Below are positions 25,239-35,554 of a stretch of DNA of 64,000 nt, in pieces. The position numbers were made by a program, and so were the translations under genes. The notes under the pieces were generated by a model, which was not told where the DNA came from, did not search any database, and saw only the letters and a program-made list of their open reading frames with translations. The stretch is from NCBI GenBank assembly GCA_963805085.1, contig CAWDTA010000005.1:608001-672000 (forward strand), in the 5' to 3' direction. How positions within the stretch are numbered: position 1 is the first letter of the stretch; each line of letters opens with the position of its first letter. Source of the DNA: an uncultured Veillonellaceae bacterium. GTDB lineage: Bacteria; Bacillota; Negativicutes; JARBTT01.

Positions 25239-25315
25239 TGGTGGCGGCGCAGAGATTCGAACTCCGGACACTGCGGGTATGAACCGCATGCTCTAGCCAA
25301 CTGAGCTACGCCGCC
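25239..25315 (-). tRNA. tRNA-Met (CAT), elongator type
   Basis: GGCGGCGTAGCTCAG...TGCGG-TTCATAC-CCGCA...GTTCGAAT...CCA. Confidence 0.93.
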
Positions 25316-25318
25316 GAA

Positions 25319-25403
25319 TGGTGGATGGGGTTGGATTCGAACCAACGAAGGCGGAGCCGGCAGATTTACAGTCTGCTCCCTTTAGCCACTCGGGAACCCA
25401 TCC
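25319..25403 (-). tRNA. tRNA-Tyr (GTA)
   Basis: GCAGA-CTGTAAA-TCTGC anticodon arm, long variable arm, GGTTCGAATCC, CCA end. Confidence 0.96.
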
Positions 25404-25413
25404 ATTATTTAAC

Positions 25414-25489
<76 letters not shown>

Positions 25490-31042: not shown

Positions 31043-33031
31043 TTGAGTACAATAGACACAAAATCAGTAAATGCGATTCGAATCCTAGCTGCCGATGCAG
31101 TACAAAAAGCAAATTCAGGACATCCAGGATTACCTCTTGGCAGTGCAGCAATGGCCTATGAATTATGGGCAAAACACATGAAGCACAACCCTAAAAATCC
31201 AAAATGGGCCAACAGAGACCGTTTCGTTCTTTCTGGTGGTCATGGATCAACCCTTTTATATTCCCTACTACATTTATTCGGCTACGGTAACTTATCCGTA
31301 GAAGACTTAGCACAGTTTAGACAAGAAGGTTCCCTAACCCCAGGTCATCCAGAATACGGTCACACCGTTGGTATCGAAGCAACCACCGGCCCTCTAGGCG
31401 CAGGTATGGGCATGGCAGTCGGGATGGCAATGGCAGAAGCACATCTATCCGCTGTATTCAACAAACCAGAATATCCTGTAGTCGACCACTATACATACGC
31501 ATTGGGTGGCGATGGCTGCATGATGGAAGGTATTTCATCCGAAGCCTTCTCACTTGCCGGAACACTAGCATTAGATAAACTCATCGTACTATACGATAGC
31601 AATAAAATCTCCATCGAAGGCAGTACCGAACTTGCTTTCACCGAAGACGTAGGCAAAAGAATGGAAGCCTTCGGATTCCAAATCCTAACCGTAGAAGACG
31701 GTAACGACCTAGTCGAAATCGGTAAAGCAATTGAGGCCGCAAAAGCAGAAAAAACAAAACCATCCTTCATTATCGTCAATACACAAATCGGCTACGGCTG
31801 CCCAGCAAAACAAGGCAAAGCCAGCGCACATGGCGAACCACTAGGCGCTGACAACGTAACAGCACTTAAAGAAAACCTCGGTTGGGACAAACAAGATGCA
31901 TTCTACGTACCAGACGAAGTATATAAAAACTACAAACAAATTGCTGAACAAAATGCAAAAGTAGAAGAAGAATGGAATGCTCTATTTACAAACTACGCAA
32001 AAGCATATCCAGAGCAAAAACAATTATGGGACAAATACTATGCAGAGAACCCAGCAAAAGACCTAATCAACGATGAAGCTTTCTGGGCGTTCCCTGACAA
32101 AGCCGATGCTACCAGAAACCTATCTGGTATGGTCATCAACCGCATCAAAGATATTCTGCCAAACATCATCGGTGGTAGTGCAGACCTTGCACCATCGAAC
32201 AAAACCAACATGAAAGATGCAGGCGACTACTCCAAAGAAAACTACGCAGGCAGAAACATTCACTTTGGCGTAAGAGAACTATCAATGGCGGCTATCGGAA
32301 ATGGACTAGCCTTACATGGCGGACTAAAAGCTTTCGTAGCAACCTTCTTCGTATTTAGCGACTACGTAAAACCAATGGCAAGACTAAGTGCGCTTATGGG
32401 ATTACCATTAACTTTCGTACTAACACATGACAGTATCGGTGTAGGCGAAGACGGACCAACACACGAACCAATCGAACAACTCGCAATGCTAAGAGCAATG
32501 CCAAACTTCACCGTATTTAGACCAGCCGATGCAACCGAAACAATCGCAGGCTGGTACTATGCAATCACAAATCAAACAACACCAACAGGACTCGTACTAA
32601 CTAGACAAAACCTACCACAACTACAAGGTTCAAGCAAAGAAGCCTTAAAAGGTGGTTATATACTACAAGATGCAAATAAAGCACAGGCCGATGCCATTAT
32701 CATTGCAAGTGGTTCCGAAGTAGAACTAGCAGTCAATGCAAAAGCACAGCTAGCCAAAGAAAACATCGACGTAAGAGTCGTAAGTATGCCATCGATTGAT
32801 CTATTTGAAGAGCAGTCAGAGGCATACAAAGAAAGTGTATTACCAAAAGCGATCAGAGCCAGAGTAGCAGTAGAAGCAGGAGCAGACTTCGGCTGGGGTA
32901 AATACATTGGCCTCGATGGTAAAACAGTAACAATGCCAGGCTTCGGCGCATCCGCACCAGCAAGCATACTATTCAAAAAATTTGGTTTCACAACTGAAAA
33001 TGTTGTTAAGACAGTAAAAGAAGTATTATAA
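31043..33031 (+). CDS. tkt: transketolase
   Basis: ANSGHPG, TPGHPE, GDGCMMEG TPP motif, THDSIGVGEDGPTHEP; TTG after AAGGAGG; atypical codon usage. Confidence 0.97.
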   Translation: MSTIDTKSVNAIRILAADAVQKANSGHPGLPLGSAAMAYELWAKHMKHNPKNPKWANRDRFVLSGGHGSTLLYSLLHLFGYGNLSVEDLAQFRQEGSLTPGHPEYGHTVGIEATTGPLGAGMGMAVGMAMAEAHLSAVFNKPEYPVVDHYTYALGGDGCMMEGISSEAFSLAGTLALDKLIVLYDSNKISIEGSTELAFTEDVGKRMEAFGFQILTVEDGNDLVEIGKAIEAAKAEKTKPSFIIVNTQIGYGCPAKQGKASAHGEPLGADNVTALKENLGWDKQDAFYVPDEVYKNYKQIAEQNAKVEEEWNALFTNYAKAYPEQKQLWDKYYAENPAKDLINDEAFWAFPDKADATRNLSGMVINRIKDILPNIIGGSADLAPSNKTNMKDAGDYSKENYAGRNIHFGVRELSMAAIGNGLALHGGLKAFVATFFVFSDYVKPMARLSALMGLPLTFVLTHDSIGVGEDGPTHEPIEQLAMLRAMPNFTVFRPADATETIAGWYYAITNQTTPTGLVLTRQNLPQLQGSSKEALKGGYILQDANKAQADAIIIASGSEVELAVNAKAQLAKENIDVRVVSMPSIDLFEEQSEAYKESVLPKAIRARVAVEAGADFGWGKYIGLDGKTVTMPGFGASAPASILFKKFGFTTENVVKTVKEVL

Positions 33032-33137
33032 GAACGATAAAATGACAAAGGATGCTCCTTATGAGCATACCTAGGATTAGTTGATCCTGAAAATTAAAAA
33101 ATATTTTCAAGGAATAAAAGCAAATAAAACCCATAGC

Positions 33138-33185
33138 AAAAAAGCGAGGTCAACGGACGTAAAAAATCCGATGACCTCGCTTTTT
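33138..33185. terminator. bidirectional terminator-like hairpin at left edge of islet
   Basis: AAAAAAGCGAGGTCA-a-CGGA...TCCG-a-TGACCTCGCTTTTT. Confidence 0.75.
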
Positions 33186-33219
33186 CTATATAAAAAATCA
33201 TATTTCGCTTTATTTTTAC

Positions 33220-33247
33220 TTGCAATTCCTAAGAAATGGATTATACT
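33220..33247 (+). promoter_or_regulatory. sigmaA-type promoter of islet leader
   Basis: TTGCAA-16-TATACT. Confidence 0.65.
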
Positions 33248-33265
33248 AAGAAATAGGTGGAAATT

Positions 33266-33359
33266 AAAAAAGTCGCCGTGTCCTGAGAGTGTTGGACCAC
33301 TCCCAGGCACGAGCAGGTGAATGAGCACCTACACGTAACAGCTAGCTGTCTACGACGAC
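33266..33359 (-). ncRNA. putative ~94-nt cis-antisense RNA (counter-transcript)
   Basis: own TTGTAA-17-TATAAT promoter; three hairpins and an alternative 5'/3' closing stem GUCGUCGU/ACGGCGAC; ends in U6. Confidence 0.65.
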
Positions 33360-33364
33360 AATTT

Positions 33365-33393
33365 ATTATACCGTGCTTTTCCCTTGATTACAA
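33365..33393 (-). promoter_or_regulatory. sigmaA promoter for antisense RNA
   Basis: minus strand TTGTAA (33393-33388)-17-TATAAT (33370-33365). Confidence 0.75.
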
Positions 33394-33476
33394 GGGTGAT
33401 AGTCCGTTCGCTTGGTATAATACGATTGAAGTTTTAGCAGAAGGCTTAGCGTCTGCATGCAATCAAGATGAAGCAT

Positions 33477-33518
33477 AGCGCATGTGTAGGTTGAATAAAA
33501 CCTCGCATGTGCTTTTTT
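33477..33518 (+). terminator. conditional (attenuator) terminator in islet leader
   Basis: GCGCATGTG-t-AGGTT-gaataa-AACCT-CGCATGTGC-TTTTTT; 5' arm complementary to 33327-33336. Confidence 0.75.
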
Positions 33519-33611
33519 AATTTCTCCTGAAACAAACTGCATGTTGGTTTTTTCTATCTGCATCAGCGGATAGAAGAAACCTCATACAGAATGATGATGG
33601 AGGGATATAAA

Positions 33612-33767
33612 TTGGTAACAGTACAAGGTAGTAAAAAGCTGTGGGCAAGGTATCGCACCAGCATGTGGCGAGGAATCCTCCTCGCCACAACCAAGAGGAG
33701 AGGTTCGTTCTATTTACAAGGGACAAGATTTGTTTTCTTGGGAAATAGAGGTTCTGGAAATGTATAG
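33612..33767 (+). CDS. possible 51-aa basic small protein
   Basis: GGAGGG RBS then TTG; MVTVQGSKKLWARYRTSMWRGILLATTKRRGSFYLQGTRFVFLGNRGSGNV; stop overlaps next ATG (ATGTATAG). Confidence 0.4.
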   Translation: MVTVQGSKKLWARYRTSMWRGILLATTKRRGSFYLQGTRFVFLGNRGSGNV

Positions 33768-34092
33768 AACCTACAGAACAACGCAGGATACGATTATAGC
33801 TGCTCCGGCTACAGAACTAGAGAATGCTAAAATTACAGTTGAATTGATTACAGACTTGAATAGCAAAGAATATGCGCTGCTCAGACGGCAAGAGAAAATT
33901 GCGATATATGATCTGTCACTGATTGGTTATGTCACTGGAATAATTAACGGTTTTTCTTTTGAGGAGTATAGAGACATTACCTATGCGAGATTAGATAAGG
34001 AACTATTAGAGATGGGCATCAAACCCAAGAAGCGGAATTTTATGAGGTTTGATCGGAAATATTTCGTGGAAAAAGGCACAACTGGCAGCTAA
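33760..34092 (+). CDS. hypothetical protein (110 aa)
   Basis: ATG 33760 after GAGGT; no recognisable motif; followed by 20-bp hairpin. Confidence 0.7.
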   Translation: MYRTYRTTQDTIIAAPATELENAKITVELITDLNSKEYALLRRQEKIAIYDLSLIGYVTGIINGFSFEEYRDITYARLDKELLEMGIKPKKRNFMRFDRKYFVEKGTTGS

Positions 34093-34117
34093 TTGAATAG
34101 CTGCCAGTTGTGCCTTT
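34072..34117. terminator. 20-bp perfect hairpin, bidirectional terminator between islet ORF and GT9
   Basis: AAAGGCACAACTGGCAGCTA-attgaa-TAGCTGCCAGTTGTGCCTTT. Confidence 0.8.
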
Positions 34118-34191
34118 AAATATCAAATACCCTCTTTAGTGTGATCTAGTTTCTAGTGTTTATATGGCGCTGATTTCATCATGTCTTAGTT

Positions 34192-35238
34192 TTACTTGCT
34201 AAGTAGCGAATTAATTTTCTTGGCCACGGATTTAACAGGGATCGCTCGCATGCAATCATTTTTGCCAGTCGCGCATTTTGTTTTATGGCAGGTTACACAA
34301 CTATGGGTGCTTTGTACGACGATGTGATTAGGGACAAGTGGACCATATTGTTCAGGACTAGTTGGTCCCCATAAGCTGACTGTCGGTATTTGTAGAGCTG
34401 TTGCTATATGCAAAGCACCGGTATCACCAGTCAATAGTAGGTCAGTACGGTGGATTAAAGCAGCTAATTCTAATAAGGAAGTTTTGCCAACTGCATCAAA
34501 TAGAGGTTTATGGCAAAGCGAAGTGATTGTAGTTGCATCGGCTGTATCTTGGATGCTGCCACATAACAAAATTTGAATATTAGGTGCAAGCATGTCAATT
34601 AATCTTGCAAAATTTTCATTGCCCCAATTTTTGCTTAACCAGCTAGTCTTAGGATTGATCATTAATAATTTTTTTTGCGAATCAATATGATTCCTTTCTA
34701 AAAAATCATCGGCAAATTTATGTAGTTCAGCAGTTAGTTTTAGTGTCATTTGATGATCATTTGTCTGAATATGTAAGGGAGCCAAAACAGATAAATAACG
34801 TTTTATCACATGTGGAGAAGTTGGTGAAGGTGCTTGTTCGGTCATAAAAAAGCGATTGAGCTCACGAGTGTTTGCCATGCCAATGCGCCTTTGTGCTTTG
34901 CTATAAGCGGCAATCATACCACTTAAAAACAGACCATGGATATCTAAGACGATATCAAATTGGTTTTCTTTATAAAATGCTTTTAATTGTTGCCACAATT
35001 TCCGTAAAACTGCAAACTGACGTTTCTTTACAGCTTGATCAAATTCTTCGCGTGACCAGACGTACAGTTGATCAATATAGGGATTATTCATTAATAAACT
35101 TGCTGACATATTACTTACAATCCAAGTAATATGACAAGCTGGATATGCTTCTTTTAATGCTTTTGCTACTGGTGTCGCATGTAGGACATCGCCAATAGAG
35201 CTTAAACGGATAATTAAAATGCGTTGGTTATTTAACAT
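34192..35238 (-). CDS. glycosyltransferase family 9 (ADP-heptose:LPS heptosyltransferase-like)
   Basis: ILIIRLSSIGDV, GKTSLLELAALI, GDTGALHIATAL, LWGPT, Cys-rich C-terminus. Confidence 0.9.
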   Translation of the reverse strand: MLNNQRILIIRLSSIGDVLHATPVAKALKEAYPACHITWIVSNMSASLLMNNPYIDQLYVWSREEFDQAVKKRQFAVLRKLWQQLKAFYKENQFDIVLDIHGLFLSGMIAAYSKAQRRIGMANTRELNRFFMTEQAPSPTSPHVIKRYLSVLAPLHIQTNDHQMTLKLTAELHKFADDFLERNHIDSQKKLLMINPKTSWLSKNWGNENFARLIDMLAPNIQILLCGSIQDTADATTITSLCHKPLFDAVGKTSLLELAALIHRTDLLLTGDTGALHIATALQIPTVSLWGPTSPEQYGPLVPNHIVVQSTHSCVTCHKTKCATGKNDCMRAIPVKSVAKKINSLLSK

Positions 35239-35554
35239 CAATATGACCAAACTTTCTACAAAATTTATGAGTAATTTATTGTTATAATACGATTGGTTTT
35301 GTTAGCATTATTTGAGCTTTACTACAAAAATATACAATACCATTGATGATATCAAAAATGTAGAATAATATCAATGATATTGTAGAGGAAAAATACCTTT
35401 CTACTTTATATTTTACAACATAGTATTATGTTATATCCAGTTATACTAGGATGATTTATAAGCACTAAACTTTTACCATAGTAGATAATTTTAATCGGTA
35501 ATTTTATTTTTTTCTACACAATGTTACAATGGTACTAATGAATGGGAGGTTATA

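Follow-up and report, generated by a model that had tools for sequence, protein, structure and literature searches.

In pT181 (RNAI/RNAII-repC) and in pIP501 and pAMbeta1 (RNAIII-repR), the rep mRNA is subject to countertranscript-driven attenuation, and antisense-driven transcription attenuation of this kind is textbook knowledge for a few Gram-positive plasmids. Other antisense RNAs act at later steps: SymR of Escherichia coli overlaps the ribosome-binding site and start codon of its target and blocks translation or promotes decay, and the antisense RNAs of hok/mok/sok (plasmid R1) and tap/repA (IncFII plasmids) keep an upstream frame from being translated. To our knowledge, antisense attenuation is hardly described as a chromosomal, family-wide control device, and we know of no RNA antitoxin whose mode of action is transcription attenuation. 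Here we analyze a cassette in a 64,000-nucleotide (nt) stretch from an uncultured Veillonellaceae bacterium (GenBank assembly GCA_963805085.1, contig CAWDTA010000005.1, positions 608,001 to 672,000), referred to as the window, whose numbering is used for all positions given without a contig or locus name. The copy under study spans 33213-34117 and probably represents a type I toxin-antitoxin-like unit that combines countertranscript attenuation with sequestration of a ribosome-binding site.

In the mechanism that we propose (features in Table 1), the sense promoter would give rise to a leader RNA and a convergent promoter about 105 nt downstream would give rise to an antisense RNA of about 95 nt, fully complementary to the leader at 33262-33358. 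In the nascent leader, ACCUACACGU would pair with the 5' arm of the leader terminator, which would thereby be blocked and allow RNA polymerase to read through; with the antisense RNA bound to the leader, ACCUACACGU would be occupied, the terminator would form and transcription would stop at 33518. Any read-through RNA would be further restrained, the ribosome-binding site of the first open reading frame (ORF1) being paired with a C-rich segment just 3' of the terminator, and the second ORF (ORF2), of 110 amino acids (aa), would be translated via the short upstream ORF that overlaps it. Copy-specific loops of the target hairpins would prevent cross-regulation among copies in one cell, and in relatives the same module would gate SymE-family toxins and other small proteins. 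The analysis shows the repeat family, its conservation, the pairing constraints on each strand and the alternative folds; we infer production of the antisense RNA, termination by it, orthogonality of the copies and a harmful effect of expressed cargo.

The comparison is based on 61 distinct copies of the cassette, to the exclusion of one more copy cut by a contig end and one at a locus edge; 30 closer copies were used for some column counts. An earlier note on this DNA had proposed an antisense-controlled attenuator in front of a gene other than rep, and its core idea stood: the antisense promoter is found in 61 of 61 copies, the complementarity is invariant and wobble pairs are distributed asymmetrically over the predicted overlap. 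Its islet, its insulating hairpin and its single cargo did not stand. All six sequence features that it had listed were found at their coordinates by direct reading and folding, but it had missed that the unit is repeated and that the leader is followed by a second ORF (33612-33767) ahead of the 110-aa ORF.

The convergent promoter, which the note had paired with a ~94-nt RNA ending in six U residues (U6), has a minus-strand -10 TATAAT and a -35 TTGTnn in all 61 copies, and three hairpins followed by U6 are predicted for the RNA. The spacer measures 17 nt in 58 of the 61 copies and 16-18 nt in all of them, while its sequence, the last bases of the -35 box and the neighboring helices all vary; on the same measure, the copies of one genome that carries 23 of them have an 18-nt spacer. 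This was the second-best promoter-like site in the scan, with 10/12 matches. Promoter-like sites as a class were no commoner than in shuffled sequences (12 found, 10.2 expected); the case for both promoters is a comparative one. For the sense promoter, CTTGCAAT and a TATAAT or TATACT box are kept in 30/30 closer copies, and across the alignment of 61 copies the columns of CTTGCAAT reach 90% conservation or more. At locus L119, a group II intron domain V/VI match (L119:1670-1743, minus strand; 49.7 bits, gathering score 40) stops at the place expected for the sense -35 box of the cassette copy, and the intron appears to have replaced the upstream half of the promoter there.

Constraints on pairing also speak for an antisense RNA, the asymmetry of tolerated pairs more so than the double changes. 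The minus-strand RNA 33358-33262 folds at -43.8 kcal/mol (z-score -5.5, with none of 200 shuffles as good), and the leader helices of the overlap, P2-P4 (31 pairs), are 96.5% paired across the 61 copies. Five of these pairs show double changes from one Watson-Crick pair to another (39 cells), a count reached by none of 500 shuffles, which is supportive but no proof, as related sequences can beat every shuffle without structure. The cells of P2-P4 that are not Watson-Crick comprise 56 A.C or C.A combinations, which correspond to G.U on the minus strand, versus 5 plus-strand G.U, and a further 11 that pair on neither strand. The bias is reversed in the sense terminator, with 115 plus-strand G.U cells versus 11 A.C, or 57 versus 11 when the one position at which G.U is the norm is left out; over the whole leader of the 30 closer copies, plus-strand G.U amounts to 81 cells at 19 positions versus 8 cells at 7 positions. 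We read this as selection that keeps a minus-strand RNA fold over exactly the overlap predicted by the note and a plus-strand fold downstream of it. The predicted minus-strand RNA has the shape of a terminated countertranscript.

On the plus strand, the leader folds at -103.4 kcal/mol (z-score -7.0 against shuffles) and contains the two alternative structures that an attenuator needs. The terminator alone folds at -19.9 kcal/mol and was missed by a simple terminator scan because its stem has an internal bulge. Its 5' arm CGCAUGUGUAGG is invariant in 60 copies, and this includes the UGU that is bulged here and finds a partner in the antiterminator only. The 3' arm, by contrast, varies freely, and in one lineage the terminator stem has a compensated extension. 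In the antiterminator, ACCUACACGU (33327-33336) pairs with AUGUGUAGGU (33482-33491) through 10 pairs including one G.U. This core of the antiterminator described by the note was borne out, its strands being invariant in 61 and 60 copies, respectively, but the extensions of the GCUA/UAGC type that the note had added are lost in distant copies, as read from the alignment. The antiterminator is part of the minimum-energy fold of the window transcript ending at 33493 or 33500, and when the window leader is folded at growing lengths the terminator replaces it once 33512 is reached. Among the 61 copies, nascent RNA ending just 3' of the terminator 5' arm forms at least 6 of the 7 CCUACAC:GUGUAGG pairs in 51, and the full leader has the terminator in its minimum-energy fold in all. 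A further helix, P1, can bring the leader ends together, with the invariant 5' AGGUGG and A-run (33255-33272) pairing with the U-run and AAUUUCUCCU (33512-33528). The lengths of the A-run and U-run are equal in 39 of 60 copies, a correspondence that follows lineage and is too weak to prove P1, and the middle part of the leader varies from ~100 to 300 nt among copies.

The loops of the target hairpins behave differently from their stems. All 14 own-genome copies have distinct combinations of P2 and P3 loops, and among these copies the loops differ at 0.44 per site versus 0.031 for the stems. For the pT181 attenuator, one study (PMC3753616) states that mutations in hairpin one, placed in its loop and upper stem, altered specificity. 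A cell with many cassettes would need just such a combination of diversified loops and fixed stems against cross-talk, although mere lack of constraint on the loops would give an identical pattern.

The module belongs to a repeat family, and the 'chromosomal islet' of the earlier note gives way to a dispersed multicopy family, widespread in the class, of which at least 14 copies, 81-93% identical, lie in the own genome. A search of that genome with 33200-33600 gave 19 matches, and blastn of 32900-34400 found 12 further near-full copies (81-90% identity over 823-989 bases) in addition to fragments. Of the 401 Negativicutes genomes sampled, 41 contain the promoter-leader module (blastn of 33250-33610), and these represent 17 of the 110 genera; in distant genera the first 120-145 nt of the leader are 80-89% identical, and the terminator segment is kept too. 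A pattern count on both strands of five complete or near-complete genomes gave 23, 10, 5, 4 and 2 copies, whereas the reversed pattern, used as a control in the same genomes, gave 0. An exact 27-mer of the leader was found in named records of Pelosinus, Propionispira and one Massilibacillus metagenome-assembled genome.

Column identity among copies is 0.92-0.94 over the leader (33262-33558) versus 0.68-0.90 over ORF2, whose synonymous sites differ by 0.35 per site among copies; the leader is thus ~5 times less diverged than the synonymous sites of the neighboring ORF, and by these alignments the non-coding leader is the best-conserved part of the cassette. One copy sits at the same place in a same-genus genome, and its downstream flank recurs in a genome from a different family, which makes some of the copies, at least, old. 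The copies lie in chromosomal contigs, and the module had no match in plasmid, phage or viral collections. Copy G004_2, from a genome of another family, and the own-genome copy b have an identical 42-nt in-frame deletion in ORF1 (equivalent to 33694-33740 of the window), and ~330 nt of upstream repeat sequence in common as well; a DNA contig from a soil run has a similar 45-nt skip. Within ~35 kb of the own genome (C5:21556-54325), five 5'-truncated ORF2 fragments lie beside a full copy (C5:19669-20558).

The expectation of the note that no described Rfam family would be matched with confidence was borne out at E up to 1: the search of 33213-33610 gave nothing on the leader and chance-level matches to the two flanking hairpins only. 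At the gathering score the whole window yielded three tRNAs only, and the module itself was unmatched in four distant loci. A known RNA family (riboswitch, T-box, known sRNA, SymR or plasmid antisense RNA) was rejected, as no covariance model matched at its gathering score. Literature on Pelosinus with noncoding RNA or repeats, as far as the excerpts of the records go, contained nothing relevant. No description of the module occurs in the titles and abstract openings of articles on SymE, Firmicutes and antisense RNA or on antisense attenuation and type I toxin-antitoxin systems.

Downstream of the terminator, an anti-Shine-Dalgarno (anti-SD) segment and the Shine-Dalgarno (SD) sequence of ORF1 flank the conserved hairpin 33537-33589 and change together across copies, in the combinations CCCC/GGGGG, CUCC/GGAGGG (the window copy and one other) and CCUCC with GGAGG or GGGAGG. 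Because of this co-change around a conserved hairpin, read-through RNA would begin with a sequestered ribosome-binding site, and binding of the antisense RNA at the A-run side of P1 might also tighten this translational lock. ORF1 keeps an open frame of 46-51 codons in most copies, but the Pelosinus-group copies use another frame for it, in which a stop codon immediately precedes the ORF2 ATG, and its ratio of nonsynonymous to synonymous changes (dN/dS) is 0.5-0.6. Our reading is that ORF1 is a coupling ORF, of which the translation and not the peptide would matter; the geometry alone suggests translational coupling of ORF1 and ORF2.

ORF2, with a dN/dS of 0.26-0.51, is by this measure under purifying selection; it is truncated in 4 of 13 own-genome copies. 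The note had announced a 110-aa protein with no Rep signature, and ORF2 indeed has no family hit, but it is not the sole cargo, with ORF1 upstream of it and other genes in other lineages. Neither ORF1 nor ORF2 had a Rep or any other hit in Pfam, PHROGs or NCBIfam, and for ORF2 there was no hit in PADLOC, nothing in a sequence profile search of the PDB and no usable hit in the ESM Atlas. Relatives of ORF2 come from a narrow group: the 53 proteins found by a word-index search are either unnamed or annotated as 'hypothetical', a search of 1.84 billion representatives with a profile yielded only 9 hits (clusters), 7 of them at E up to 1e-10, and 11 of the 401 sampled Negativicutes genomes have the ORF. 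The AlphaFold2 model, of medium confidence (predicted local distance difference test, pLDDT, 70.7), is a six-stranded small barrel with two helices, for which Foldseek returned no convincing neighbor (best E 0.18) and a wide VIA-align search reached a best Z of 4.2 with small-barrel folds (Sm, OB, Tudor) all tied.

Only 30 of the 61 distinct copies carry cargo of the ORF2 type, and because the cargo differs among copies, the conserved and portable unit is the RNA module. Propionispira shares promoter, leader, second hairpin and ribosome-binding site with the window copy, and the ORF1 start position is taken by another ORF, of 98 aa; this ORF is DUF6809-like, at 25.9 bits just below the cut-off of 27, and the cargo of one distant locus is clearly DUF6809 (85.8 bits), a family for which no literature was found. 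SymE-like ORFs occupy the cargo position in 6 of 18 distant loci, and all three cargo proteins tested matched SymE_toxin of Pfam (42.8-45.4 bits against a gathering cut-off of 29). Further cargo lacks a Pfam hit and falls into a 76-aa, a 67-aa and a 105-150-aa family, the last being the cargo in 16 of 21 loci examined of the 23-copy genome. The ORF2 profile showed no similarity to the SymE cargo or to the 76-aa cargo. The SymE cargo in relatives points to a role like that of type I toxin-antitoxin systems more than to the zygotic-induction or defence module that the note had given as examples. Approximately 70 nt upstream of one SymE-cargo copy, L120:1755-1993 (minus strand) gave a full-length match to the Rfam BsrG model, which represents a type I toxin mRNA of Bacillus subtilis (42.7 bits with a gathering score of 55, E 1.3e-8); the match contains an ORF beginning MTIYEAL.

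Several observations weigh against the proposed attenuator or its toxic cargo. The nascent minimum-energy fold lacks the antiterminator in 10 of the 61 copies, and as both antiterminator strands are invariant there is no covariation, only conservation and folding energy speaking for the helix. The minimum-energy fold of the full leader has the terminator even without antisense RNA, which means that the antiterminator must win kinetically if polymerase is to read through. Neither the conserved P1 nor the leader's variable middle (~100-300 nt) has an assigned role, and the copies are related, so the counts overstate independent events. A search for sequencing runs gave small shares only, and the expression material consisted of three metatranscriptome contig sets and one DNA set. 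Leader and ORFs are covered by contigs from relatives, of which one spans the terminator, but such contigs carry no strand or end information, and one runs 5' of the sense promoter, so that DNA carry-over or read-in is possible. Finally, ORF2 was similar to no toxin in family, PDB and profile searches.

The terminator fold of the complete leader is also the starting point for an explanation in which the antisense RNA acts mainly after transcription, by forming a duplex with the leader that is, e.g., cleaved by RNase III, or by freeing the anti-SD to block translation, with the terminator as a constitutive partial stop. The co-variation of anti-SD and SD, which shows a translational lock, agrees with this, as does an antisense target that takes in the A-run side of P1, the other side of which borders the anti-SD, and described type I systems act via translation or RNA decay. 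We nevertheless consider it unlikely: the terminator 5' arm is invariant even in bulged bases pairing only in the antiterminator, the antiterminator is present in the nascent fold of 51 of the 61 copies, and the preemptor lies inside the antisense target as in pT181-type attenuators. Less probable still is a leader that works with no functional antisense RNA, either as a sensor in cis (a riboswitch, or a leader bound by a protein or the ribosome) or as a stable stand-alone ~265-nt RNA, the minus-strand boxes being by-products of a conserved RNA sequence. The strong fold (z-score -7.0), the pairing of the leader's 5' and 3' ends in P1, the plus-strand wobble support for helices outside the overlap and the position of the module before several unrelated genes, as for riboswitches, would all fit such a leader. 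A sense-only RNA leaves unexplained, however, that the mismatches tolerated in P2-P4 pair only on the minus strand (56 versus 5). The TTGT and TATAAT boxes keep their 17-nt distance while the bases between them and the adjacent helices change; moreover, a leader middle of ~100-300 nt is unlike a ligand pocket, and there is no Rfam match.

The dispersal of the copies, up to 23 per genome, raises the question of whether mobility or selfish spread as DNA is its main nature, with hairpins that serve transposition or recombination instead of RNA regulation, and both the existence of 5'-truncated fragments and an 858-base-pair (bp) IS200-like element that abuts or cuts several copies could be taken in this sense. 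This seems very improbable to us, given a unit without transposase, flank alignments in which neither terminal inverted repeats nor target duplications were seen, the age of the copies, one of which holds the same position in a same-genus genome, and strand-specific RNA pairing constraints that are not expected of DNA sites. Countertranscript attenuation is therefore preferred here as the reading of the cassette.

Table 1. Features of the cassette copy under study and its upstream flank, in window coordinates; functions are predictions.
Feature	Position	Strand	Remarks
Upstream terminator-like hairpin	33138-33185	+	separate short repeat, inconstant part of the cassette
Sense promoter	33220-33247	+	TTGCAA-16-TATACT; 9/12 matches in promoter scan; predicted start ~33254
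Leader RNA (attenuated transcript)	33254-33518	+	~265 nt
Predicted antisense RNA	33358-33262	-	~95-97 nt; hairpins complementary to P4, P3 and P2, with U6 behind the third
Preemptor (antiterminator 5' strand)	33327-33336	+	inside antisense target; invariant in 61 copies
Antisense promoter	33393-33365	-	-35 TTGTAA (33393-33388), 17-nt spacer, -10 TATAAT (33370-33365)
Intrinsic leader terminator	33477-33518	+	stem-loop 33477-33512, U6 at 33513-33518; minimum-energy fold
Translation lock	33524-33604	+	anti-SD CUCCU (33524-33528), hairpin ~33537-33589, SD GGAGGG (33599-33604)
ORF1	33612-33767	+	51 codons; TTG start; GGAGGG 7 nt upstream; overlaps ORF2 start by 8 nt
ORF2	33760-34092	+	110-aa orphan protein; predicted small beta-barrel and two helices
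Terminal hairpin, closes cassette	34072-34117	+	~19 bp; ORF2 stop codon in loop; in most copies

The genes flanking the cassette encode a transketolase (31043-33031, plus strand) and a glycosyltransferase-like protein (34192-35250, minus strand). Homology among copies begins at ~33182, just 5' of the sense promoter, and stops at the terminal hairpin; the downstream neighbor is not syntenic in the nearest complete relative, which is why exact insertion borders could not be set. The downstream ORF closed by a hairpin, as the note had it, was recovered, with the 110-aa ORF ending inside the terminal hairpin. The 'insulating hairpin' fared differently as a part of the unit: its arms AAAAGCGAGGTCA (33140-33152) and TGACCTCGCTTTTT (33172-33185) pair, but it is whole in only 4 of 13 aligned own-genome copies (the window copy and 3 others) and truncated in 1 more, and blastn found four further occurrences at unrelated places in the own genome. 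In 8 of the 13 copies, the window copy not among them, an A/T-rich inverted repeat (AAAACATGATTTT ... AAAATCATGTTTT) directly 5' of the sense promoter takes the place of this GC-rich hairpin.

The 858-bp IS200-like element, whose product is a Y1_Tnp protein of 252 aa (60.5 bits in Pfam), has 5-6 near-identical copies in the own genome, e.g. C2:248222-249075, C2:548222-549075, C2:553443-554300, C2:801352-802207 and C3:14503-15300. Its right end abuts cassette copies at different internal positions (window equivalents 33172, 33390 and 33968), and one of its copies lies inside the 3' end of an ORF2. Membership of the cassette itself in IS200/IS605 was rejected, as there is no Y1 (HUH) transposase or TnpB ORF inside the unit. 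No tRNA or transfer-messenger RNA was found in the cassette region; a cluster of three tRNA genes (Met, Tyr, Thr) at 25239-25489 of the window, on the minus strand, is ordinary.

A wider reading, which we offer tentatively and with less confidence than the one for the cassette itself, is that of a portable module in at least 17 genera and at up to 23 copies per genome, with private loop addresses and each copy gating a different small, possibly toxic protein: a new type I-like superfamily that would be defined by its RNA module, with attenuation as the antitoxin mechanism, and that would constitute a natural library of orthogonal regulators. If the attenuator reading of the cassette holds, the Sporomusa/Pelosinus branch of Negativicutes would possess a widespread undescribed RNA family, and a regulatory RNA module, not a protein, could be the conserved portable part of a toxin-antitoxin-like cassette. 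Three orphan small-protein families, the ORF2 type, the DUF6809-like type and the 'FDQYVF' type, would then be candidate toxins or stress effectors. There would also be up to two dozen naturally diversified attenuator/antisense pairs per genome, where engineers had to build orthogonal attenuator sets by hand; the largest engineered set of attenuator/antisense pairs at the time was 7 x 7, according to PMC3753616.

Among described systems, the cassette compares most closely with the attenuators of pT181 and pIP501. As in these plasmids, a convergent promoter inside the leader is predicted to yield a short multi-hairpin antisense RNA with its own terminator, an intrinsic leader terminator lies upstream of the regulated ORF, and a preemptor inside the antisense target can pair with the terminator 5' arm. 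The hairpin loops are likely specificity determinants in both. Unlike the plasmid systems, the cassette is chromosomal, has no Rep gene and no plasmid or phage match, and is present 2-23 times per genome, its loops having diversified; its small-protein cargo is exchangeable, a lock that sequesters the SD and an upstream ORF are added, and it shows neither sequence similarity to these plasmids nor an Rfam family at E up to 1. The cassette would work in the manner of these plasmid attenuators, yet it stands outside their families.

As to type I toxin-antitoxin systems, the predicted antisense RNA would pair, on sequence evidence, with the leader at the 5' end of the cassette mRNA. SymE-SymR has a cis antisense RNA from within the 5' leader of a small-protein mRNA, as is predicted here, and SymE_toxin-family cargo is found in 6 of the 18 distant cassette loci, but the overlap in the cassette lies ~240 nt upstream of the SD, where it faces a terminator, and the window cargo is not SymE. 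With hok/mok/sok and tap/repA the cassette has in common a short ORF that runs into the start of the main one, so that the main ORF would need coupling to be translated; in the cassette ORF1 is kept while its frame and peptide are not. It differs from both in an antisense target that lies far upstream.

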